From Escherichia phage vB_EcoM-E33: a stretch of 64,000 bases of DNA. The position numbers and the translations under genes are program-made. The stretch's first letter is position 1. Every line of letters starts with the position of its first letter. Positions 33,594-49,892 of the stretch are shown in pieces. The stretch lies in the sequence record OL780484.1; one strand, given 5' to 3'. Below the pieces are notes generated by a model. The model had not been told where the DNA came from, did not search any database, and saw only the letters and a list, made by a program, of their open reading frames with translations.

Positions 33594-33938
33594 ATGTCTA
33601 AATTATTTTTTGGTAATCGCAACATTATGTTCTTTGAGCAACTCAGTCTTAAAGAGGCATTGAAGGCCTTCAATCAAGAACTGGTTACTGGGCTAGATTC
33701 AAAAACTATGGCAAGTGCGGATTTCGTTTTCGTTCAAGACCCGGATACAGGTTTTTATCGATTCATCAAATTCCGTATGAGCATGGACCCTGACTATCGT
33801 AGTGCTTACTACGTGAGTTATGAAAACGTTATCAAAGAATTACGTGATACCTATGGACGCGCTTTGAACCCACTGAACAAGGTTTATAATGCTTCTTTTT
33901 ATACGAGCGGATTTATTTTAGAACAGCTACAAAAATAG
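33594..33938 (+). CDS. Hypothetical protein (114 aa)
   Basis: ATG 33594 after SD AAGGAAA. Confidence 0.45.
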   Translation: MSKLFFGNRNIMFFEQLSLKEALKAFNQELVTGLDSKTMASADFVFVQDPDTGFYRFIKFRMSMDPDYRSAYYVSYENVIKELRDTYGRALNPLNKVYNASFYTSGFILEQLQK

Positions 33939-37091: not shown

Positions 37092-37421
37092 ATGAACAAG
37101 CTTAATATTGTTAATGAACTTCGTCGTTGTGCAGAACCTACTCAAGAAGGTTGGGACATTTGGTACCACGGTGCTTATCTCGGCACTATTGTTAAGATTA
37201 AAGCAGGTAAATACTTAATCATCCGTGGTGGTTCTGAAGCTTCTATGGGAATTCGCAAAAACTTTATGGCAGCAATCAGCACCTTTGTTCCGGCGGCCTA
37301 CGAAGTTTATAAAGCGGACTACAAAGAATACCAGGAATCACAGCCGGTTATTCGTTCAATTGGTGTTAATAAAGCTCAACAGAAAACTTTATGGCAACGT
37401 GTTAAAGGATGGTTCAAATGA
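37092..37421 (+). CDS. Hypothetical protein (109 aa)
   Basis: SD GAGGAAA. Confidence 0.45.
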   Translation: MNKLNIVNELRRCAEPTQEGWDIWYHGAYLGTIVKIKAGKYLIIRGGSEASMGIRKNFMAAISTFVPAAYEVYKADYKEYQESQPVIRSIGVNKAQQKTLWQRVKGWFK

Positions 37422-37756
37422 TTCCGATGGAACTTGACTGGGACGGCGAAGGCCATTCCCTTAAATTAATCGAAGAGCAGCGTAATGATTGGGACGAGCG
37501 TGTAGCTCTGGTAAACGGTATTAAGAAAATTTATCAACTCAATCTCCAGATTGATAACGTTCATCTTGAATTTGGTATGCAGTTATTACGATTTCTTGAG
37601 ATTATTTTTATTGAAAAGGTAAATATAACTTCGTATGGCGAGGGCCAAACAGTTGATATTAAATTATCATCCTATTATAAAGGTGATTTAATTGAAACTG
37701 CCACCAAAATTCAAGAATTTGCTAAAGATAATGGCCATAAGGTGATTTTCAAATGA
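37418..37756 (+). CDS. Hypothetical protein (112 aa)
   Basis: ATG 37418 overlapping upstream stop. Confidence 0.45.
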
Positions 37757-38825: not shown

Positions 38826-39101
38826 ATGACTAAAATTGAAATTGTTTCCGAAATTGCTACTATTGTTTCCATTTTGATTAAAACGGATTGTGAAGACATC
38901 ATGCAACGTCGTGATGAGTTTATTGCCTTTTTGAATGAGTTGGGTATTCGTAATGAACATGGAAAGGAACTTAATGGTTTGTCTTATAACAAATTATTTA
39001 AGTCATTAACTGAAGATGAACGTGACACTCTTATTGAGCAATTTAATGAAGGGTATGAAGATATACACCGTTACTTAATGATGTATACCTCCAATTTCTA
39101 A
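38826..39101 (+). CDS. asiA: Anti-sigma70 factor AsiA
   Basis: 91 aa; …IAFLNELGI…LIEQFNEGYEDIHRYLMMYTS matches T4 AsiA. Confidence 0.92.
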   Translation: MTKIEIVSEIATIVSILIKTDCEDIMQRRDEFIAFLNELGIRNEHGKELNGLSYNKLFKSLTEDERDTLIEQFNEGYEDIHRYLMMYTSNF

Positions 39102-39751
39102 CGTGTTCGACCTAATGTCCTCCCAGCCTGACCGCACATAGACGAAAGTCTAGGAAATCCTAAATCCGGTTTGATATCATACCAGTACAACGATATCGAG
39201 CCGGCGTAGACGTTATCCAAATTAAAAAACGGGCACGAAAACATATACGTGAATTGTGTTTTCTTCTTTGTAGGAAGGAACACAGTTTCGGTACTTGATT
39301 CAAAATAGTTCCCGTTAACTCCCGCCATATATTCTACTGACGTTTTGTCAATTGGAAACCCTCCCGTGTTTTTTGCGTCTACCGTTTCCGGTAATTTACC
39401 CTCGTAAGCCACCATATCCACAAAATAATTCATGTTGGTCGGTCTAAAAGAATATATTGCTGTGAAGTCTGCGCCTGAAGAAGAATGCACTATTCGGAGC
39501 TGCTCGATAGCCGCAATTTTAAATCTATTGTCCTGGTCTTGTCTAATCATTTCAGTATAAGAGGCATAAGTAGTCTCTTTATAAAAGTTTAGAATATACT
39601 CGCCTTTATACCAAACCAATGCCATAAAGAACAATAATATTACGACTAGGACCCGGGAAAAAACTACTTTCCCGGAAGAAGTATCTTTAAAAATTCTATC
39701 AAGAAGTCCAAAAAGTAGGTCTGATAATGATATTCCTACTTTTGGTTCCAT
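39098..39751 (-). CDS. t: Holin T
   Basis: 217 aa; …LSDLLFGLLDRIFKD…VWYKG…NYFVDMVAYEGKLP… matches T4 holin; SD AAGGAG; late promoter upstream. Confidence 0.95.
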   Translation of the reverse strand: MEPKVGISLSDLLFGLLDRIFKDTSSGKVVFSRVLVVILLFFMALVWYKGEYILNFYKETTYASYTEMIRQDQDNRFKIAAIEQLRIVHSSSGADFTAIYSFRPTNMNYFVDMVAYEGKLPETVDAKNTGGFPIDKTSVEYMAGVNGNYFESSTETVFLPTKKKTQFTYMFSCPFFNLDNVYAGSISLYWYDIKPDLGFPRLSSMCGQAGRTLGRTR

Positions 39752-39769
39752 ACTTTTCTCCTTTAAAGA

Positions 39770-39777
39770 TATTTATA
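39770..39777 (-). promoter_or_regulatory. T4-type late promoter TATAAATA (holin t)
   Basis: Reverse complement of tatttata, ~19 nt upstream of t start. Confidence 0.6.
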
Positions 39778-39788
39778 GAGCTTATGCA

Positions 39789-40595
39789 CTATAGCCAGGA
39801 ACCGTAGATAACACCTGTATTATGCCAAGTAGGAGAACTTCCAGCAACAGCAGCTCCTGCGCCGCCGCCAGCGCCGACTTTTAGAACTTTACCACCATCA
39901 TTCCATGCGTTCTGGCCTGCGGCGCCAGCATCACCGCCATGACCTGAGTGGGCGTTACCATAATTGTATCCACCGCCAGGGCTTTCATAAGAAGCACCAC
40001 CGCCAGAGTATCCACCGCCGCCACCAGGGCCAAATGGACGTCCACCACCACCACCGATATCTTGCCAGTTAGCACCTGAGTGAGGACGATACGCAATGCC
40101 GCCACCGCCGCCGCCACCGCCACAGATAACCCCACCATTATTAATTCTTAAACGACCACCAATATCATTTACAATACAAGTTCCACCCCATTGGCCGTTG
40201 CCATCGCCACCCGAGTGGGTCCAACCACCTTGACCACCTCGGCCCCATATATGAACCCCACCACCAATATTCAATTGAACATATTCGTTTGGAGTATCCC
40301 CATACATAAAGAACAATGGAACATCACGGGTATAAGATACTAATGTACCTGTAAGATTAAACACAATAGGCGCACTACCAGCTTCAAAGCAACGGTCGCG
40401 GAACCACTGCCCATTAAAGTTATGGTCCCCACCTAAAGTATGAATAACTTCAACAGACCGGCCGTTCATATTACTCATCCAAAATGGGACACCCATTCTT
40501 AATCTTACAGCGGCTCCTGCCATCCAAGGGTCTCCTGTCTGCGCCCTTGCAGAAGTTCCTATCCACGGTCCTGCTACTGCCATATAAACCTCCAA
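39789..40595 (-). CDS. 38: gp38 tail-fiber tip adhesin (T2-type, Gly-rich motifs)
   Basis: 268 aa with multiple polyglycine stretches (GGGGGGGG, GGGGG) separating short variable segments; directly downstream of gene 37. Confidence 0.85.
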
Positions 40596-40609
40596 GGGGC
40601 CGAAGCCCC
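40596..40609 (-). other. ggggc-UUCG-gcccc hairpin between gene 37 stop and gene 38 SD
   Basis: Read on - strand: …GAGGGGCUUCGGCCCCUUGGAGGUUUAUAUG. Confidence 0.5.
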
Positions 40610-40614
40610 TCTTA

Positions 40615-43600
40615 TTATTTTAACAATGATTTAATTAATGCTTTAAGTTCTTCAATCTCTGATTTCAATTCTGCTATTTCTGCAGTGTGCTCATTGATTG
40701 CAGCTGTATTTAAACCAATTACACCGTTATAGTTCAAACGAAGTAAAGCTTCACCATCAGGGTCACCTTCAACTAATTCTGGTAAAATAGCTTGAACTTC
40801 TTGAGCTATCAAACCGGCGTTAGGTTCCCATTTCTGATTGCCTTCTTCATCTAGGCCTCGCTTCTGCATATAAGTGTAACCATTAATTTTAGAAAGTGTT
40901 TGTGAAGCATTTTCAAATTTAACGAGGTCTTTTTTAACGCGAATATCAGAACGGACATAAACATCACGGACAAACGTTGAATAGGCATCACCCTGTTGGA
41001 CTAAATGACCATGAGAAACAATTGCTTTACCGACTTCTGTCCAAAAAGCACCGGATGAATCCCATAACCCCTCATGTGCCAGACGTTGAGATCCCCATGA
41101 CGCAATATGAACACTATCGGCAAACATGTTAATACGGCCGTCACCGCCCCAGACTAAACCAGTATCATTATCACCAATAACAAGACACGGCCCGGGCCAT
41201 GCAGGGTCTCCACCACCAGCTGATAATCTTGCTCCAGTTTTAACCATATTAGGAACATACAGAACTCCATTGTGATGGAATTCATAGATAGCTTGTGGGT
41301 CTTGACCATTTTCCTGGTTACCTACACGAATAATACCTTGCGCCCAAGTATTAGTAATGCGTCGCATACCAAAATCTACACCCGATATGTATCCTTCGTT
41401 AGTAATACCAGATTTTCCTTTGATAATCGGGTAATAACTATCATTACCAACATTACCAAAATCTACAAACACCGGAGCTTCTTGTCGCCATTGATTACCC
41501 CAATCGCCAGCTTGGTGTGCAGCCCATTGTGAACCCTTTATATAAAGACGGTCCCTATTAAAATAAAAAGTATCCGCCCCTTGAGGAGCTAAACCAACTT
41601 CTCCACTATTATGAATATTAACGCCTGAATTAGTTTGGAAACTATAAAACGATAAGTTGTTATCAGCGCCGCCATTACCAACATACCAGTTATTAACGCC
41701 TGCTTTTTGTCCTTTCACATAACCAGATTCGGTTGCAGCACTGTTAATAACAATAGCATCCGAGTTTGCATTGATAGTTAAGCGGCCGGTCATCGTGTCG
41801 CCTTCTTTAGCCACACGGGAGGCAATAGCATCATGAATGTTAGTTATATCACCAGCAGAGGTAAATACGTTCCAAATGTTGGAGAAGATATTACCATTTC
41901 GAGCAATAGTAGCTTCACCGCCGCCAACCTGTACGTTATCCGGGAAATTAACTGTACCATCAGCATTAAATCTTGATGTATGACCTTGGGTCCCGTCTTC
42001 TTTGTAATGATGCAAAACAAAAGTCCCGGAATTAATTTCAGTACCTAAAGACCAAACAGCTTTTCCTTGTAAGAATTTCTGCTTAACAATAGGATAATAT
42101 TTACTTACCGCGTCATCATCAATTTCTTGGAAAACAGGAGCTGCTTGTGCATATTGAATATCGTAACCGCCTGCACCTGCACCATGTCCACCGAATTTAA
42201 TATAACCGTTTGCTGCAAAAAAAGCATAACTCAAATCTAGGTCAGGAATAACAACCTTACCGGTATCCAATGCCAAACTAAATGGACGAAGTGGTCCGAT
42301 ATCACCATTTTTACCTTCACCGTAAGCAGTTGGAATAATATGAAGACTTCCTTCTGAACGTCTAAAAATGGCACCGTAATCATTGTTCCAAATACGAAGA
42401 CCATTTACAGCATTTGTCGCGATTTCACCGGCTGCGCTGATTGTACCGTCAAATGTAGCATTTTTTACTACAGTCAAGTTTTCATTAACAATCTGGGTGC
42501 CATTTAGAACCGATTCGACTTTACCAGCAGTTGTTCGTTGAATATATTGCATCCAGCTAGTAGCATCAGATATTTCCATTACGTTTTTACGGTCGCCATC
42601 AACATTAGTAAAGGTATTACCCCAAACGCTGATAGTCATATTATCAACTGAACTACTTCCTGTAGTATTTCCTCTGAACATTAGTGTAGAAGCATTGTTG
42701 TGGCCATCAATATTAACCGAACCACCAACAACATCAATATTACCAGGAGTAACTAACAAACCACCAGCGGTGTTAACGTTTGTAGTACCCTTACCACGGA
42801 AATAGTGGTGATAATTGCCACCTTGATAATAACCTAAAAGAGTTTGACCGTCGCCATACGCGTTATTATCATGATAAGTGACAACCGTCGCCAAAGCATA
42901 GTTTTCCGACGGAGGAGTGGTTAAATCGGTACCGTTTACAGAATAACCCATAACCATTTTTCTAAGACTGGTGGTTTCTGCAGGGCCGTACAGGAAAGTT
43001 CTCGTGCCGTTATTAACGCTGAAATAATATCCATCCTGATGCCATTTTAACCCGGTGTCATTATCGCCAAGAGCAATTGAAGCCGTTCCTAATTCAGAAT
43101 ATCCTTTAGAGTTACCTGGGGTGCCTACAGAAATAGAATGGCCTGCTTTCAATCCACCGGACCAGGTAAATGACCAAAGATAAGCTTCTAAGCCGTCGCC
43201 GGCATACCAGGTTATTCCGTCATTATCTTTAACTTCATGGAAAATGCTCGAACTAACGGCATTTCGCATAACACGAAGGTGGTTAATAGCTGTTTCACTT
43301 TCTGCCAATGGGGTATTATCGGCCATTGAATAGATATCATAATCACCTTTAACCTTTTTATTAGTAATAACTTTATTGGTATAAATTACCGGAGTTGATA
43401 CAGATTTCCATCCAAAAACTTCAGGGGAAGAAAACACACCATTGCCTGAAAACGCGTAGGTGCTTTCGCCACTTGTCGCATAATCTTGTACGCGAATATT
43501 AACTACCTGAGTGGTCGCTCCAGCATTATTTGGCGAAAAGATAATGCCACGTTCGCGGGATGCGCCGTCAAAAAATCTCAAATGGGACGTCGATGCACTC

Positions 43601-43941
43601 TTAGAAATAAGCTCGCCACCTTCGGTCATTATCTGGCCAGCGGCAATAATGTCACGAGTTACACGAGCAATACCGGTTAAATTAAAATCACCTGTTTGGG
43701 TAAAGGTACCATTTAGGGTGTAATCGCCAGTCTGGTTGTAGTTACCGGTATGAATAACATTGCCGTCAATATTACCACCTTTAGCAAAGCCAAGGTCGAT
43801 AATCGCTCCAGTATCGTCTTTAGTAAAAAGTAAACGGTCCTTTAAGTTAATAGCCAGTTCGCCTTCAGCCAACTGGGCCGGTGCTGGACGTACACCGGCT
43901 ACTTTACTTCTTTTAAATTGGATTTGCTTTAAAGTAGCCAT
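40615..43941 (-). CDS. 37: Long tail fiber distal subunit gp37 with C-terminal intramolecular-chaperone (S74-like) domain
   Basis: 1108 aa; C-terminus …SDIRVKKDL…GYTY…[15 protein letters not shown]… + coiled coil. Confidence 0.93.
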
Positions 43942-43949
43942 AATGCCTC

Positions 43950-44597
43950 TTAATAATAACCAAAATCTTGAATAGAATCTTTAATAACAATCTGGTCAAA
44001 ACGAGGAACGTGTCCTGCGTCAGAGGCCGGATTCAGCGAAATAAAGTTAGGAGCAGCAAGTACCCCGGTCATTGTTTGCATGTTAGTATTATTTATTTGG
44101 ACTTGTTTTGCGTTATCTACTAACGATAATCCTACTTGAGCTTTAGTAGGGGTGTTGCCTGGGCTGAATACACGACCTGATTCGTCATAAACTTGACGGG
44201 ATAATGAATCACCCATTACTGTGAGGCGTTTAGCACCCACTACTGTACTTGGGTCAAATATAACGAACGGTGTACCGTCTTCCGTTTCATATCCAAAAGC
44301 ACCTTTAATACGGAAAGAAGCCGTGAACGGGGCCCCGCCAGTTCTTGCTCCTAATTTAATACCATATCCATTGGTATCATTAAAGGTCAGGCCTTTTTCA
44401 AAATACACGTTATTCTTATAATTACCACCATTTGCTTTTGAAACAAAGTCGTTATCAGCGGCTTGTGGTTTATTATATTCGGTGTAAACTTTATACGTTT
44501 TGTAAAGAAGGTCATTTGATACAGGCGTTAAGGGGAAATTACCTTGGTGCCATAATACTGAACCTCCTGCTGTAGAACCTAATTTTAAATCTGCCAT
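43950..44597 (-). CDS. 36: Long tail fiber hinge connector gp36
   Basis: 215 aa (T4 221 aa); synteny 35-36-37. Confidence 0.85.
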   Translation of the reverse strand: MADLKLGSTAGGSVLWHQGNFPLTPVSNDLLYKTYKVYTEYNKPQAADNDFVSKANGGNYKNNVYFEKGLTFNDTNGYGIKLGARTGGAPFTASFRIKGAFGYETEDGTPFVIFDPSTVVGAKRLTVMGDSLSRQVYDESGRVFSPGNTPTKAQVGLSLVDNAKQVQINNTNMQTMTGVLAAPNFISLNPASDAGHVPRFDQIVIKDSIQDFGYY

Positions 44598-44640: not shown

Positions 44641-44674
44641 CGTAGAAAACGAAAAAGGAACCCGAAGGTTCCTT
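44641..44674 (-). terminator. Rho-independent terminator after gene 35 (aaggaacc-UUCG-ggttcctt + T-rich)
   Basis: Hairpin overlaps gp35 stop; followed on - strand by TTTCGTTTTC. Confidence 0.55.
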
Positions 44675-45794
44675 AATATTTTTCTCTAAATTCAGCGACC
44701 CAAACCTGACCAGGTTTAGTGCCTGTTTTATCATATAGCTGGGCTATGGTAGTACCCATATTTTTAGTTTCTGTACCAAAGTTCATACGAATACCGTTAA
44801 CACCAAATTCAGCGGGTTTTGGCTGAGGTTCTGATTCAGATATCTCACCGAACATAACATTTCGAACTCCACCTTGTCCGGCCGAAGCTGTTTTTCTGGC
44901 ATAAAGGGTAAAGTCTGTAGTACCTTCAGGAACCATTACTACCCGTTCAAATGTCATCCATGCACCAGCAGGAACGTTGGAAGGAACGTCCATATTAACT
45001 GTCCCGGTTAAAGCACCTGAGGCATTAAAAAATCTAACAGACATCTGAGAGGTCCCGACGTCTTTTAAAGCTTGGTCGCGCATTAATTGAAACTTAAGGT
45101 AAAAGAATTCACCTGGTTTCATATTATAATCTGTTAATGGGGTTGTAGGAGATTCGGTAGGAAATCGCTTAATTTCATCTCCATCATTGCTTAGATAAGT
45201 GCTTTCGTCTTCAACAATTCTGACAGGATATCCTGTACCACCAACGTCGCTGATATCATCAAATACCACTTCTAATGGGGTAGAAACATCTTCGACCAAT
45301 ACCCCATCATTATAAAGCACATGTTCCATTACTATAGCATTCCTTCCTGAAACATAAAATGCCGAATAAGACGGCTCGAAGCGGTCTATTAGCCATTTAG
45401 ATGGAAATGCGGTACTTCCTGCTGCACGGAACCAATCGATAAGTTTTTGTGAAGCATTTAATCTACCAGAAGATACTAAACAAACTATTCTATTAGCCGG
45501 TATAGAATTTATATACGTTATAAAAGCTTCAGAAATAACATCAAAATCTTTTGTAAAACTATAAGTTTTGTTAGCCACTATTTTGGGTTCAGCACTAACA
45601 TCGATTTCTATAAGGTTTAATCCATTTTGAAAATTCTGGGAACCGAAGTTCCCATCTTGAAATTTAACATATGCTTTTGTGGTAGACTTAGTACAACTAC
45701 CAGCTATACTAAGTTTATACCTCACAGCATTGTTTTCAGATAATGTAGGAACCTGGACATATCCTTGTCCAAATTCTGCCATAAATCTTTCCAT
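44673..45794 (-). CDS. 35: Long tail fiber hinge protein gp35
   Basis: 373 aa (T4 372 aa); synteny. Confidence 0.85.
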   Translation of the reverse strand: MERFMAEFGQGYVQVPTLSENNAVRYKLSIAGSCTKSTTKAYVKFQDGNFGSQNFQNGLNLIEIDVSAEPKIVANKTYSFTKDFDVISEAFITYINSIPANRIVCLVSSGRLNASQKLIDWFRAAGSTAFPSKWLIDRFEPSYSAFYVSGRNAIVMEHVLYNDGVLVEDVSTPLEVVFDDISDVGGTGYPVRIVEDESTYLSNDGDEIKRFPTESPTTPLTDYNMKPGEFFYLKFQLMRDQALKDVGTSQMSVRFFNASGALTGTVNMDVPSNVPAGAWMTFERVVMVPEGTTDFTLYARKTASAGQGGVRNVMFGEISESEPQPKPAEFGVNGIRMNFGTETKNMGTTIAQLYDKTGTKPGQVWVAEFREKY

Positions 45795-45802
45795 AATACC
45801 TC

Positions 45803-48800
45803 TTATTCAATCCACTCAAACTTAACGGATTTAGTGACCGGGTCAGGAATAATACGAACGTTACCAATACGTAACCAATCAAGGATTGTAATGTTACCCA
45901 TTGTAGCGTTATCAGCAGGCAATGCACCAACCTCTTCAGCAGAAGGAGGGTTATCTGCCGTATAGACCATAGAGAACGTAGTCCATGCGTTTTTATTTTT
46001 CTGCCAGGTACGTGTATAACGAATAGTACCACCATTCAGTCCTGTAGGATAGCACACCCAATCCTGATAACATGAATCCAATGTATTACCAAACTGAGTT
46101 AACGTACCAGGATATTTAACTTCCTTATCACGAACAGAATAATCAAACCAAGTACCACGTAATTTCTGACCTGATGTACCGAGAACCTCGTCACCAAAAC
46201 TACCGTCTTCGTTACGATAACGAATAGCCGGAGAACTAAATGCACCTGTTTCTGTTAACCAACCAGAAGCATTCCATATCTCGTCAGAAACACCGGCAGG
46301 TTTAGTTTGGACCGTATCAATATTAACCTGACGTTTAGTTTTCATCGTCCAATAACCAGGGAACAGGTTAAATGTAGCCGAATCATCGATATCGACAGAC
46401 CAGAAGCCAACGGTTTCTGCAGTAGGGGCCTGGGATGCTAATGTAGGTTTAACACCAACAGAACGGACGTATTTTTGAGCAACCAAACCATTATTTGCCG
46501 ATACCTGCCCGGTGGAAACGATAGTACCTGAAGTAGTTACGTTTTGCAACGAAGACAGAGCAGAAGCATTTAGTGTGGTTGTAGAAACACCGTTAGAAGT
46601 GGTTATACCTGTGATATTAGCATTCTTAGAAATACTAATGGAACCACTATTAACAGCAAAGTCACCAGTCGTATTAAAGGTCCAGTAGAAAGATTCTAAA
46701 GAACCCGGCGATGGAAGATAATGTATTTTAAAATCACGAGTTCCGTCGTTTACAGTGCCTAAAGAGAATGTACCTTGCCCTAAACGTTGTTTAACAATAG
46801 GATGGAACTTGGCATCCGGGGTCGAATTTATCTCGGCAAAAATCGGAGCTAAAGTATCACCTTGAGAGTTCCAAGTACCTGCACCAGATTGGGGTCCTAC
46901 AAATTTAATAGATTTACCTGAGCTAACAGATACATCATTTTTAAAAGTAGAATTTCCAGTTACTTCTAGAGAACCTAAAATAGTGTTGCCGGTAATATTA
47001 GCCGTACTAGAAGACACCAGAGGAGCGGCCAGGTTCAATTGTTTTGTCAACGTTAAAGAACCATTAACCGTTTGGTCAACGTCTCTACGAATGAACTGGA
47101 GTGAATCTAGGCCATCCAATTTCTCGGAGTTCACAGCCGTAGCATTTATAGGTAAAAAGTTCTGTAAAGTTTTATTCATCTCGTAAGATGAAACAGCATA
47201 ACCTGTTTTAGGGTAGTTAGCTGCGTTCAGAACAGTATCGTCATTCTCATAAAGGCCTGTACCTGAGTTAAATTTAACACCAGAACCAGTAACTTTATTT
47301 CCTGAATAGGTTAAAGCACCTTCGGTTAGTTTAACAAATCCACGACGAAGTGCAGTAGCTTCCCAAGTGGTTTCAGTTTGTACTACATATTTTAAACCAG
47401 AAGGGCTTACAGCCAGAACTTTAGAAGTTCCTGCGGTTGTTTCGGTATTCGTTGCAACACGAATAATACCTTCAGAACTTTCAGTAGATTTTTTATAATG
47501 CAATTTCAAAGGAGTGATGATAGTTTTATCATCGGTACCAACGTTGACTTCGGTCTGGGTCGCCAGGCGAGCAGTACCACGTTGTGTCTCATTTGCTTCT
47601 CTAATATCTAGTGTATAATGGTTCCATAAGGTTCCTGATTCAATCAAACCACTGGCTGCTGAGACAGAAGTTCTAGCAGTATCATTAAATCTTGTTTTAA
47701 CTTTCAACGGAGTTGAAATAACATTATCTAACGTACCAGCATCAAATTCTACCTGTGTTGCAATTCTAGCAATACCAGTCAATCCTTCCGTAGCTTTCCT
47801 ATCATTTAACGTCTTAGGCGTTACCGCACGAGTATAATCTGTTCCAGTATCAGTTTCCTGTTGCGTAGCAATTTCAATTAACCCTGTACGAGTATCAAGG
47901 GCCACACGAGCATGTAATGTTTCCGGAGAAACAGCACTGTTGGCAAATCCACTTGCAGTTTGACCTGCGTTAACTTCAGATTGGTTAGAAAGATATACTG
48001 TACCCTGTTGAACTTGGGTAGCTTTATACTGGTCGAGAGCTTTAGGAGAAATAACCAAATTGCCTACGTTCTTATTATAAACGTTAGTACCTACAGTGTC
48101 TCTAGCAGTCGCAGGAGTGGTTCCTACAGTAGAGGTATATGTTACAATACCTGAAAGACTTTCCGAACCCTGGCGTGCTTGTAGCTTCTTAGGAGTGATG
48201 ATTGTAGTATCATCTGTACCCGTGTTAGTTTCAACTTGCGTAGCAATTTCAGCAACACCACGGCGAGTTTCGGTTGCAGTACGTTCGTTTAATTTCTTAG
48301 GAGAAATAATCAAATCGTCCTGGAATGCGAAGGTTGTGTCCTGGTTCACCTGAGCAGTAGTAGCAATACGAGCAATACCACGACGAGATTCAGTCGCTAC
48401 ACGATTAGCTAAAGTCTGTGGAGTAATTGCAAGTTCTTTCTCAGGGTTATTTTCATGGTCAACGTTTGCCTGAGTCTGCGACGCAAGGGCAATAACACCT
48501 AAACGAGCACGAGTTAAATCATCTTTAGAATCTACACGTTCTATAGTAGGAACGTTCTGAGCAACAACCCAATATTTGCCACCTGTAGTGGTGTCTTCGA
48601 TATAACTCAGTTCAATAACCGGAGTATAACTTATATTGCCATTAAAGGTCAGTACGTCATTCAATACCCATTCGGTTTCTGGTGGATATTCTGAACGTTT
48701 AGGGAATTGAAGCAACTGGACGGATGAAGCAATCTTATCTCCTACGGCAGCCTTAATATTTACTGTCTGAGCTTTACGGAGATAGTTCAGAGCAATCTTA

Positions 48801-49852
48801 ACGACATCACCCTGGGCCACACCGGTAGGTAATGTGATATTAATTGTCTGGGGTGTCGTGTTATTAGGACCAAAAACAATAACACTTTCGTTAGCCAAGA
48901 GTTCAACATCGTCACGAATTACACGTAAACGAGTTTGTCGGTCGCCGTCCCAAACATACCATAATTTTTCGGTAGAGTTATAAACAAAGAATCCATCACC
49001 TGAAGTACGGAATTCCATGCTATGCTGGCCAGGCTTACCTAATGAAGATGACGCATCAAATGTTTCAACGATTAAGTGGAATTTACTTCCTAAACCATCG
49101 ATATCAACGGTTTTAATAATATCACCTTGGTTCGCATACTTAGGAAGAGTAAACTTAATTACTGCACCTGAAGTATAACGACGTAAAACGTTATCACCCG
49201 CTTGTGATTGGAACTGGGCGGTGTTCGGTTCTACACGAATACCACGTTCTTCATTAGCTGCTTCCCAGAAATGCCATAAACGGTTGGCAAAGATAATCAT
49301 ATTATAGGAAAAAGGCTTCGTAATTAAGGTCTCAGTGAACTGGTTACCGAAACGGACAATTTTCTGATTACCACCACCTGGAGCAGAACTAGACTGGAGC
49401 TTAATTTCATTATAACCTACACGGCCACCAATATCCTTGATTACGATGGTATCACCATCAGTAGGGTTAGGAGGCAGGGTAAACGTAGTAAAGCTAGCAG
49501 CAGAATCCACAGCAATATATTCACCGGAAGCCAGCTGGCGTGTAGGAGATGCTACGGTAATCCATTTAGGGTCAGTACGGGTAGCAGTCCAATAACCTGG
49601 TACAAAGGCTCCTGCCGGAGCATCGATATCACGTTGAGCAACCCAGATACGTTGGTCATGGATTACGGCAAACCCTTTCTTATATCCGCGCGTCTCGTCG
49701 TACGCCTGGATGGTGTTCTCATCTATAAAGAATTCAACGTTGACGCCGTCGTCTAATACATTGTAATCGGCTTTGGCAACATTGATAACTTTCTCGCCTG
49801 CAGCATCGAGTCCGGATGTAGCACGGAAGGCAGGTTTTAAAATATCGGCCAT
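45803..49852 (-). CDS. 34: Long tail fiber proximal subunit gp34
   Basis: 1349 aa; internal repeated …TRRG.A.IAT…ITP.KL… motifs typical of gp34; SD AAGGAAA; late promoter. Confidence 0.93.
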   Translation of the reverse strand: MADILKPAFRATSGLDAAGEKVINVAKADYNVLDDGVNVEFFIDENTIQAYDETRGYKKGFAVIHDQRIWVAQRDIDAPAGAFVPGYWTATRTDPKWITVASPTRQLASGEYIAVDSAASFTTFTLPPNPTDGDTIVIKDIGGRVGYNEIKLQSSSAPGGGNQKIVRFGNQFTETLITKPFSYNMIIFANRLWHFWEAANEERGIRVEPNTAQFQSQAGDNVLRRYTSGAVIKFTLPKYANQGDIIKTVDIDGLGSKFHLIVETFDASSSLGKPGQHSMEFRTSGDGFFVYNSTEKLWYVWDGDRQTRLRVIRDDVELLANESVIVFGPNNTTPQTINITLPTGVAQGDVVKIALNYLRKAQTVNIKAAVGDKIASSVQLLQFPKRSEYPPETEWVLNDVLTFNGNISYTPVIELSYIEDTTTGGKYWVVAQNVPTIERVDSKDDLTRARLGVIALASQTQANVDHENNPEKELAITPQTLANRVATESRRGIARIATTAQVNQDTTFAFQDDLIISPKKLNERTATETRRGVAEIATQVETNTGTDDTTIITPKKLQARQGSESLSGIVTYTSTVGTTPATARDTVGTNVYNKNVGNLVISPKALDQYKATQVQQGTVYLSNQSEVNAGQTASGFANSAVSPETLHARVALDTRTGLIEIATQQETDTGTDYTRAVTPKTLNDRKATEGLTGIARIATQVEFDAGTLDNVISTPLKVKTRFNDTARTSVSAASGLIESGTLWNHYTLDIREANETQRGTARLATQTEVNVGTDDKTIITPLKLHYKKSTESSEGIIRVATNTETTAGTSKVLAVSPSGLKYVVQTETTWEATALRRGFVKLTEGALTYSGNKVTGSGVKFNSGTGLYENDDTVLNAANYPKTGYAVSSYEMNKTLQNFLPINATAVNSEKLDGLDSLQFIRRDVDQTVNGSLTLTKQLNLAAPLVSSSTANITGNTILGSLEVTGNSTFKNDVSVSSGKSIKFVGPQSGAGTWNSQGDTLAPIFAEINSTPDAKFHPIVKQRLGQGTFSLGTVNDGTRDFKIHYLPSPGSLESFYWTFNTTGDFAVNSGSISISKNANITGITTSNGVSTTTLNASALSSLQNVTTSGTIVSTGQVSANNGLVAQKYVRSVGVKPTLASQAPTAETVGFWSVDIDDSATFNLFPGYWTMKTKRQVNIDTVQTKPAGVSDEIWNASGWLTETGAFSSPAIRYRNEDGSFGDEVLGTSGQKLRGTWFDYSVRDKEVKYPGTLTQFGNTLDSCYQDWVCYPTGLNGGTIRYTRTWQKNKNAWTTFSMVYTADNPPSAEEVGALPADNATMGNITILDWLRIGNVRIIPDPVTKSVKFEWIE

Positions 49853-49884: not shown

Positions 49885-49892
49885 TATTTATA
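49885..49892 (-). promoter_or_regulatory. T4-type late promoter TATAAATA (gene 34)
   Basis: Reverse complement of tatttata, ~33 nt upstream of gp34 ATG. Confidence 0.6.

Follow-up and report, generated by a model that had tools for sequence, protein, structure and literature searches.

A gene 37–38 module of a Dhakavirus-like phage that probably forms the receptor-recognition tip of a long tail fibre of the T2/T6/S16 type

Which of the known long tail fibre architectures does the gene 37–38 module of this phage follow, and which receptor is its tip likely to recognise? Judged by sequence, the source of the window (the whole 64-kb stretch of DNA analysed here) is a Dhakavirus-like T-even phage; the backbone matches Dhakavirus phages at 95–97% nucleotide identity, and the gene order at the locus is 34-35-36-37-38-t. 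We consider it probable, at roughly 90%, that the module specifies the distal, receptor-recognising end of a long tail fibre of the T2/T6/S16 type, including cleavage of gp37 followed by its capping with gp38. Host range in this phage is determined mainly by this module. Cleavage of the chaperone domain, capping by gp38 and the polyglycine-II fold of the adhesin are already established for T2, T6, S16 and PP01; nothing about them is new here, and the module raises no new biological question. For T2, gp37 cleavage with subsequent gp38 capping has been on record since 1986, the year in which Drexler, Riede and Henning reportedly described gp37 processing.

Gene layout and the 37–38 junction

Gene 38 lies directly 3' of gene 37 and is followed by the holin gene t, a layout found in all three of the annotated relatives compared.

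40615..43941, minus strand: gene 37, long tail fibre distal subunit precursor (1108 aa, 119.4 kDa; open reading frame)
39789..40583, minus strand: gene 38, tail-fibre tip adhesin (264 aa, 26.6 kDa; Pfam, PHROG, PDB, AF2 and Foldseek)
40589..40593, minus strand: GGAGG Shine-Dalgarno sequence of gene 38, 5 nt upstream of ATG 40583 (read from the sequence)
40594..40611, minus strand: hairpin (7-bp stem, UUCG loop) that separates the stop codon of gp37 from the ribosome-binding site of gp38

Both genes of the initial annotation are confirmed, on the minus strand; a start of gp38 at TTG 40595 is not. This start, which came from a mechanical open reading frame call (39789–40595), was rejected on two grounds: the TTG is embedded in the 3' hairpin arm and the Shine-Dalgarno sequence, and the homologues all begin MAV... 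at the ATG. This leaves ATG 40583 as the real start. The hairpin forms the core stem of a 56-nt junction fold (−17.8 kcal/mol) and is kept in three related phages, one of which carries changes on both arms. Matches to the T4 late-promoter consensus, TATAAATA, were no more frequent in the window than expected (6 against 6.5), and none fell inside the 37–38 module, so that a separate gene 38 promoter cannot be claimed. An Rfam scan of the entire window gave no match.

The C-terminal chaperone domain of gp37 and its predicted removal

Analysis of gp37 revealed both a general likeness to distal fibre subunits and a distinct C-terminal domain. PHROG 1699 ('long tail fiber protein distal subunit') covers residues 1–1107 (E 0), and the Pfam domains present are Gp34_trimer, gp37_trimer and Peptidase_S74. 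The last of these (PF13884; residues 998–1057, E 9.3e-12, 45.5 bits against a cut-off of 22) sits at the extreme C-terminus of the 1108-aa protein; the match to S16 gp37 runs across the chaperone domain (E 1e-34), and more than 15 PHROG tail-fibre families match gp37 through this domain alone.

40618..40950, minus strand: Peptidase_S74 chaperone domain, aa 998–1108 (111 aa, 12.3 kDa; Pfam, S16 alignment, AF2 and Foldseek)
40948..40950, minus strand: codon of Ser998, the predicted nucleophile, with which the chaperone domain begins (first Pfam S74 position)
40933..40935, minus strand: codon of Lys1003, which is predicted to act as general base in the Ser-Lys dyad (alignment A3)
40618..40731, minus strand: C-terminal helix with heptad repeat (coiled coil), aa 1071–1108 (AlphaFold model and heptad pattern)
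40951..43941, minus strand: predicted mature gp37, aa 1–997, 107.2 kDa, ending ...FVRDVYVR (alignment with the S16 cleavage site)
40951..41190, minus strand: gp37 distal tip, aa 918–997, predicted gp38 docking surface (S16 gp37 alignment)

The initial annotation had assigned an S74-type intramolecular chaperone domain to this end of gp37, naming an SDIRVK motif followed by a coiled coil, and both elements are present. The SDIRVK motif begins at residue 998, and a second motif noted there (15 letters) begins at residue 1043. Ser998 and Lys1003 lie five residues apart in the pattern S-D-x-R-x-K and, together with Asp999 and a G-x-IAQEV motif, are invariant in 16 of 16 homologues, down to 25% identity (alignment A3). 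A word-indexed protein search with the last 209 residues of gp37 returned 15 proteins, mostly gene fragments; the alignment was shallow, and the set sufficed for the test of dyad conservation. Residues 1071–1107 form one helix in the AlphaFold model, and the last ~34 residues carry a heptad pattern with Ile at all a-positions (1075, 1082, 1089, 1096 and 1103) and with Asn (1078) and His or Leu (1085, 1092, 1099 and 1106) at the d-positions.

The modelled chaperone domain (AF2 pLDDT 81–96) matched the MyRF ICA (7DC3; E 1.7e-5, probability 1.00) and the endosialidase chaperone (3GW6, S74; E 7.6e-3, probability 0.97) in Foldseek. Both share with gp37 the Ser-Lys dyad motif, the fold and a C-terminal trimerising helix, but sequence similarity is remote (E 0.03 for MyRF), and here the released surface is predicted to serve as the docking site of a separate adhesin.

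Comparison with S16 places the predicted cut. According to PMC7917993, S16 gp37 removes its own C-terminal 113 residues by a cut at DLNVS^SDRRIKK, which uncovers the surface on which gp38 docks. The S16 SDRRIKK stands opposite SDIRVKK of gp37 in the alignment, and we predict cleavage at DVYVR^SDIRVKK. The two phages share the two-gene layout and a gp37 chaperone domain with the S-D-x-R-x-K-K motif, but differ in the tip that precedes it, which is divergent, and in the residue before the site, which is Arg here and Ser in S16.

This substitution, and the fact that cleavage of gp37 is here a prediction, would fit a different arrangement, in which the S74 domain has become a relic that does not cleave and the virion contains full-length gp37, with gp38 bound elsewhere or only transiently. 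However, the dyad and its neighbouring motif are invariant, the S74 score is far over the Pfam cut-off, and an R^S junction is also the predicted site in fPS phages (DVYIR^SDGRLKI; PMC7917993), with IR^SD or VR^SD common to all close gp37 homologues. In addition, the fold search found no part of the chaperone domain in 6F45, as would be expected if the domain had been removed from the S16 complex that was crystallised. A relic domain is thus very improbable in our judgement.

By homology with these systems, we propose that gp37 would be synthesised as a 119-kDa precursor whose last 111 residues act as the S74 chaperone domain, the coiled coil setting three chains in register and templating the folding of the trimeric tip. 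Once the trimer has folded, Ser998, activated by Lys1003, would cut the Arg997-Ser998 bond and the chaperone domain would depart, exposing a flat trimeric tip that ends ...DVYVR. The N-terminal domain of one gp38 (Trp7, Trp20 and Trp35) would then dock on this tip, and gp38, as part of the virion, would display the hypervariable loops of its C-terminal polyglycine-II sandwich to an outer-membrane protein, most probably OmpA of E. coli, thereby setting host range. The same order, cleavage and then docking of gp38, has been reported for S16 (PMC7917993) and for T2/T6 (PMC3157838), and, as summarised in PMC7917993 and PMC12892980, gp37 cleavage and gp38 capping were shown structurally for S16 by Dunne et al. 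(2018).

The tip itself (residues 918–997) is the most divergent part of gp37, with 52–74% identity to the nearest Dhakavirus gp37 proteins; a tip query (residues 840–1000) found up to 91% identity to the gp37 tips of PD112 and IME537. Residues 918–1108 aligned to the S16 gp37 chain 6F45_A (E 2e-45). Residues 900–995 had a pLDDT below 50 in the monomer AlphaFold model, the trimeric tip and the gp37-gp38 interface being beyond monomer prediction, and this part of the model, unreliable because of the shallow alignment, was left uninterpreted.

gp38 as a glycine-rich tip adhesin

The identity of gp38 decides between the T2/T6/S16 arrangement and that of T4, in which gp38 serves only in assembly, as a chaperone that particles lack, and the receptor is bound by the tip of gp37. 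Some database records do label homologues 'distal long tail fiber assembly catalyst', but this label was carried over from T4 annotation. Pfam assigned residues 45–264 to GP38 (PF05268; E 7.5e-63, 212.7 bits, cut-off 25) and residues 1–39 to Gp38_N (PF21721; E 6.3e-19, 68.1 bits, cut-off 25), and PHROG 2056 ('tail fiber protein; host specificity') matched at E 9e-103. Two solved adhesin structures matched along the full length, PP01 gp38 (9V85; E 3e-71) and S16 gp38 (6F45_D; E 5e-49), and these were also the only Foldseek matches in the PDB to the gp38 model (AF2 pLDDT 86.8). A PDB sequence search with gp37 returned only S16 gp37 and T4 gp34 modules, with no match to the T4 gp37 needle tip. 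With adhesin families alone matched by gp38, and no T4 needle tip matched by gp37 in that search, we rejected a role for gp38 as a T4-type chaperone (T4/lambda Tfa-like), and a T4-type arrangement of the module is exceedingly unlikely. None of the gp37 and gp38 domain matches can be due to chance.

40467..40583, minus strand: gp38 N-terminal attachment domain, aa 1–39, with Trp7/Trp20/Trp35 (Pfam Gp38_N)
39792..40253, minus strand: gp38 specificity domain, aa 111–264 (Gly content, adhesin alignment, PP01/S16 receptor-binding fold match)

The attachment domain contains Trp7, Trp20 and Trp35, which are invariant in a 13-sequence alignment that includes S16 (alignment A1); conserved N-terminal Trp residues of gp38 have been described as prongs that insert into gp37 (PMC7917993). 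In the specificity domain, Gly-rich motifs build a polyglycine-II core, and the hypervariable receptor loops lie between these motifs. Residues 111–264 are 37% Gly, compared with 14% in residues 1–110, and include runs of eight, five and five Gly; across 80 homologues, invariant Gly blocks alternate with variable stretches. These results bear out the earlier description of gp38 as a T2-type adhesin with polyglycine stretches. A tblastn search with gp38 against phage records reached residues 1–176 only, because the low-complexity filter masks the Gly-rich part, and a protein-cluster search and explicit alignments were used instead.

Known adhesins of this type resemble gp38 to different degrees. 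S16 gp38, whose receptor is Salmonella OmpC (PMC7917993, PMC12892980), has the same three N-terminal Trp residues and polyglycine-II sandwich (Foldseek E 5e-26), but its overall identity to the present gp38 is about 49%, and 47% within the specificity domain. PP01 gp38 has the same fold (Foldseek E 9e-30, TM 0.87 on the target) and a highly similar beta-helix body but different loops, of which D and E bind O157 OmpC (PMC12892980). In T2/T6, a gp38 of about 260 aa caps gp37 after C-terminal cleavage of the latter, and Trojet et al. (2011) described five glycine-rich motifs and four hypervariable segments in this gp38 (the GRM/HVS model); the receptor of T6 is Tsx (PMC3157838). The module shares with T2/T6 the glycine-rich gp38 and, by prediction, its capping of a C-terminally processed gp37, but identity is 57–59% over the part of gp38 compared.

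Receptor loops and the probable receptor

Alignment of the gp38 variable segments with characterised adhesins, the check proposed in the initial annotation, placed gp38 nearest to those of the OmpA-dependent phages AV111, AV119 and FL08. These 'type 1' gp38 proteins are 84–88% identical to it overall, with near-identical receptor loops, but come from other backbones (AV119 and FL08, Tequatrovirus; AV111, Mosigvirus; here, Dhakavirus). All three phages lose infectivity on ompA mutants (PMC10844046; PMC12032242).

40056..40097, minus strand: gp38 receptor loop, aa 163–176 (14 letters), with Arg166/Ser169/Gly170/Ala171 (alignment with OmpA-dependent adhesins)

This loop is identical to that of AV111 and differs from those of AV119 and FL08 by one and two substitutions, respectively. 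Its residues Arg166, Ser169, Gly170 and Ala171 correspond to R165, S168, G169 and A170 of AV119 gp38, reported as OmpA contacts (PMC12032242). Six of the seven AV119 contact residues are kept (R165, S168, G169, A170, R181 and D217); the seventh, R262, is replaced by W263, a position that is also Trp in OmpA-dependent AV111. Across the specificity domain, identity is 89% to AV111, 86% to AV119 and 85% to FL08, and 44–50% to Bp7, M1, T6 and S16. Since the closest tested relatives depend on OmpA and six of seven contacts are kept, we propose, with moderate confidence, that the receptor of gp38 is most probably OmpA.

A different receptor (Tsx, OmpC, OmpF, FadL or OmpW), or an LPS co-receptor, with the same architecture and assembly, is less probable but deserves serious consideration. 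A single residue of a hypervariable segment can switch the receptor, as in RB68, where Q206L changed it from OmpF to OmpW (bioRxiv 10.64898/2026.04.02.716166), and T6-like gp38 segments acquired the use of OmpA by three changes (PMC3157838). The specificity domain differs from those of the tested OmpA binders by about 17–23 substitutions (11–15% of positions), and its C-terminus reads SWL rather than the PRV of that set, from which AV111 (PWL), PSD2002 and PSD9 also depart; AV111, moreover, needs LPS besides OmpA (PMC10844046). Against this, the three nearest tested relatives all use OmpA, with the loops and contacts described above, and the binders of Tsx and OmpC and the OmpA binders of another type (T6, S16 and M1) are only 47–50% identical in the specificity domain. 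Use of OmpA thus remains our preferred reading, and assignment to the OmpA-binding 'type 1' group helps in choosing or engineering phages, for example for multi-receptor cocktails.

The only sequence-specific feature of the locus is the usual mosaicism. The module combines a gp37 tip closest to those of PD112 and IME537, a gp38 attachment domain of the S16 subtype and a specificity domain of the OmpA 'type 1' group that carries about 20 substitutions and ends in SWL. We suggest, tentatively and as an unlikely outcome, that this combination could shift host range or the preference of the receptor loops away from that of the tested OmpA binders; if so, the phage might use another set of OmpA variants, the OmpA of Shigella or Salmonella, or an additional second receptor.

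Organization and mosaicism of the tail-fiber locus

Analysis of the window revealed a piece of a T-even phage genome, with its first 20 kb showing 95–97% DNA identity to Dhakavirus IME08, QL01, WG01, LQ5, PSD9 and ABTNLS3. Gene order was the same in all three of the closest records, each classed as Dhakavirus. The tail-fiber locus and its neighbors are as follows.

45803-49852, minus strand, gene 34
44673-45794, minus strand, gene 35
43950-44597, minus strand, gene 36
40615-43941, minus strand, gene 37 (1108-aa ORF)
39789-40583, minus strand, gene 38 (~264-aa ORF)
39098-39751, minus strand, T holin gene t
upstream, plus strand, early genes for topoisomerase gp52, motA and asiA

The genes flanking 37-38 were 96–100% identical to Dhakavirus relatives, and identity across genes 37-38 (bins within 39601-43800) was patchy: individual 300-nt bins lay anywhere between 46% and 100%, with different segments nearest to different phages. 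At the protein level, gp37 was 92% identical to that of FB, 87% to PSD2002 and 81% to ABTNLS3; its most divergent part was aa 851-1000 (28–88% per 50-residue bin), and its tip was up to 91% identical to PD112 and IME537 and 86% to Tequatrovirus AR1. This patchwork is an instance of the modular shuffling for which the 37-38 locus has long been known (PMC3157838).

Several other features of the region were observed. Two early-region bins, 33601-33900 and 37201-37500, were only 64–82% identical to PSD2002 and ABTNLS3, the former being 98% identical to FB. The 3′ ends of the convergent asiA (plus strand, ending at 39101) and t (minus strand, ending at 39098) overlap by 4 bases (39098-39101). Residues 57-130 of the hinge protein gp35 matched Pfam ILEI (interleukin-like EMT inducer/FAM3-type; E 2.3e-6) with a score barely over the curated cut-off (28.4 versus 27 bits). 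No Rfam family reached its gathering score on either strand of positions 1-64000.

The gp37 C-terminal chaperone domain

The initial annotation, which read gp37 as ending in an S74-type chaperone domain with an SDIRVK motif followed by a coiled coil, was borne out on both points. SDIRVK starts at residue 998 and the second motif quoted there (15 residues) at residue 1043; the last 34 residues form a heptad pattern with Ile at each 'a' and His or Leu at 'd' positions, and aa 1071-1107 were modeled by AlphaFold as a single long helix. Pfam Peptidase_S74 ('chaperone of endosialidase') scored 45.5 bits over aa 998-1057, where the cut-off is 22. The monomer model was confident for this domain only (pLDDT 81–96), and the modeled domain matched 7DC3, the MyRF ICA domain, at E 1.7e-5 with a probability of 1.00, as well as 3GW6, the endosialidase 'Intramolecular Chaperone', with a probability of 0.97. 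More than 15 PHROG tail-fiber and baseplate families matched gp37 through aa ~990-1107 only, indicating the usual modular use of this domain.

In phage S16, the last 113 residues of gp37 are reported to be an intramolecular chaperone that, after trimerization, cuts itself off at DLNVS^SDRRIKK and so uncovers the surface where gp38 docks, and cleavage in Yersinia fPS phages has been predicted at a DVYIR^SD junction (PMC7917993). Residues 918-1108 aligned with the crystallized S16 gp37 fragment 6F45_A (E 2e-45), and in this alignment the S16 stretch RDLNVSSDRRIKKD stands opposite the predicted cleavage-site segment, placing the predicted scissile bond at Arg997^Ser998. Such a cut would leave 997 aa (107.2 kDa) in mature gp37 and set free a 111-aa domain of 12.3 kDa. 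Ser998, Asp999, Lys1003 and a G-x-IAQEV motif were invariant among 16 proteins sharing the gp37 C-terminus, with identity down to 25%; this is what one would expect of a protease with a Ser-Lys dyad.

Upstream of this domain, gp37 holds a module homologous to the C-terminal trimerization region of the proximal fiber gp34 (Pfam Gp34_trimer at aa 447-554, 42280-42603, E 2e-8; PDB 4UXE/5NXF at aa 418-566, E ~3e-13), so the two half-fibers have building blocks in common.

The gp38 adhesin and its receptor

The identification of gp38 as a Gly-rich T2-type adhesin likewise held. Glycine accounts for 27% of the whole protein and for 37% of its residues 111-264, including uninterrupted stretches of eight, five and five glycines, and an alignment of 80 gp38 sequences showed variable stretches between invariant glycine blocks. 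gp38 matched Pfam GP38 (E 7.5e-63) and Gp38_N (E 6.3e-19), PHROG 2056 'tail fiber protein; host specificity' (E 9e-103) and, in a PDB sequence search, the gp38 proteins of PP01 (9V85, E 3e-71) and S16 (6F45_D, E 5e-49, full length). These two were also the only PDB fold matches of the AlphaFold model (mean pLDDT 86.8; E 9e-30 for PP01 and 5e-26 for S16), the next having E above 1. The modeled fold is that of the S16 and PP01 adhesins, a polyglycine-II sandwich from which loops protrude (PMC12892980). Trp7, Trp20 and Trp35 were invariant in the homologue alignment; conserved N-terminal tryptophans of gp38 have been described as prongs inserting into gp37 (PMC7917993).

The nearest gp38 sequences were those of Dhakavirus PSD2002 (93%) and PSD9 (92%), followed at 84–89% identity by a group including KIT03, wV7, AV111, AV119 and FL08. 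AV111 requires OmpA, and LPS too (PMC10844046), and AV119 and FL08 are 'type 1' OmpA binders of broad host range (PMC12032242). Aligning the variable segments with characterized adhesins, as had been proposed, gave these OmpA binders as the nearest tested: identity in the specificity domain (aa 111-264) was 89% to AV111, 86% to AV119 and 85% to FL08, but only 44–50% to Bp7, M1, T6 (Tsx) and S16 (OmpC). The receptor loop (aa 163-176) was identical in AV111. Six of the seven OmpA contact residues reported for AV119 gp38 (R165, S168, G169, A170, R181, D217 and R262; PMC12032242) were kept, the exception being R262, which is Trp here and likewise in OmpA-dependent AV111. Because of this close identity, shared loop and kept contacts, OmpA is the most likely receptor, with a probability of roughly 0.65–0.75. 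We hold the estimate to this range because one hypervariable-segment substitution can switch receptor, as in RB68 Q206L (bioRxiv 10.64898/2026.04.02.716166), with T6/PST a second example of switching by hypervariable-segment substitution (PMC3157838).

In sum, the reading of gp37-gp38 as a host-range module is supported, with gp37 cleavage, gp38 presence in virions and the receptor being predictions. Each defining feature of the two families (T2-type gp38 and Peptidase S74) that could be tested was present; a T4-type arrangement was rejected, as the PDB sequence search with gp37 gave no match to the T4 gp37 tip. The module is an ordinary allele of an established system whose biology is already known: gp37 C-terminal processing followed by gp38 capping dates for T2 from 1986 (Drexler et al., as cited in PMC3157838), the gp38 design of glycine-rich motifs and hypervariable segments was described in 1987–2011 (PMC3157838), and the accounts in PMC7917993 and PMC12892980 place the S16 structure and chaperone-domain autocleavage in 2018.

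The gene 37-38 junction and public-record annotation

The junction reads TAA TAA G-AGGGGC-UUCG-GCCCCU-U-GGAGG-UUUAU-AUG. The GGAGG ribosome-binding site ahead of the ATG at 40583 sets the gene 38 start there; the TTG at 40595 chosen by the ORF lister was rejected given this ATG behind GGAGG and homologues that all begin MAV. Between the gene 37 double stop and the gene 38 Shine-Dalgarno lies a hairpin of 7 bp whose tetraloop is UUCG (GAGGGGC-UUCG-GCCCCUU; 40594-40611, minus strand), and the 56-nt junction had a fold energy of −17.8 kcal/mol (z = −2.3). The hairpin was also present in PSD2002 and FB, with a UUAG loop, and in ABTNLS3 with changes in both arms (AGGGCC-UUCG-GGCCCU). It may stabilize mRNA or tune gene 38 translation.

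The exact T4 late-promoter consensus, TATAAATA, occurred on the minus strand just upstream of t (39770-39777) and of gene 34 (49885-49892), and none was found inside genes 35-38; across the window the motif was not above chance (6 versus 6.5 expected).

Likely annotation artefacts were seen in database proteins P0089, P0061 and P0111-P0117. A 303-aa 'E. coli' protein carrying Peptidase_S74 and GP38 domains together is likely an artefactual fusion of the gp37 end to gp38. Further likely artefacts are pieces of the gp37 C-terminus annotated as genes of their own on 165–167 kb 'E. coli' contigs and one gp38 cluster labeled Bacillus cereus. Some homologues still bear the names 'distal long tail fiber assembly catalyst' and 'tail protein and peptidase'.
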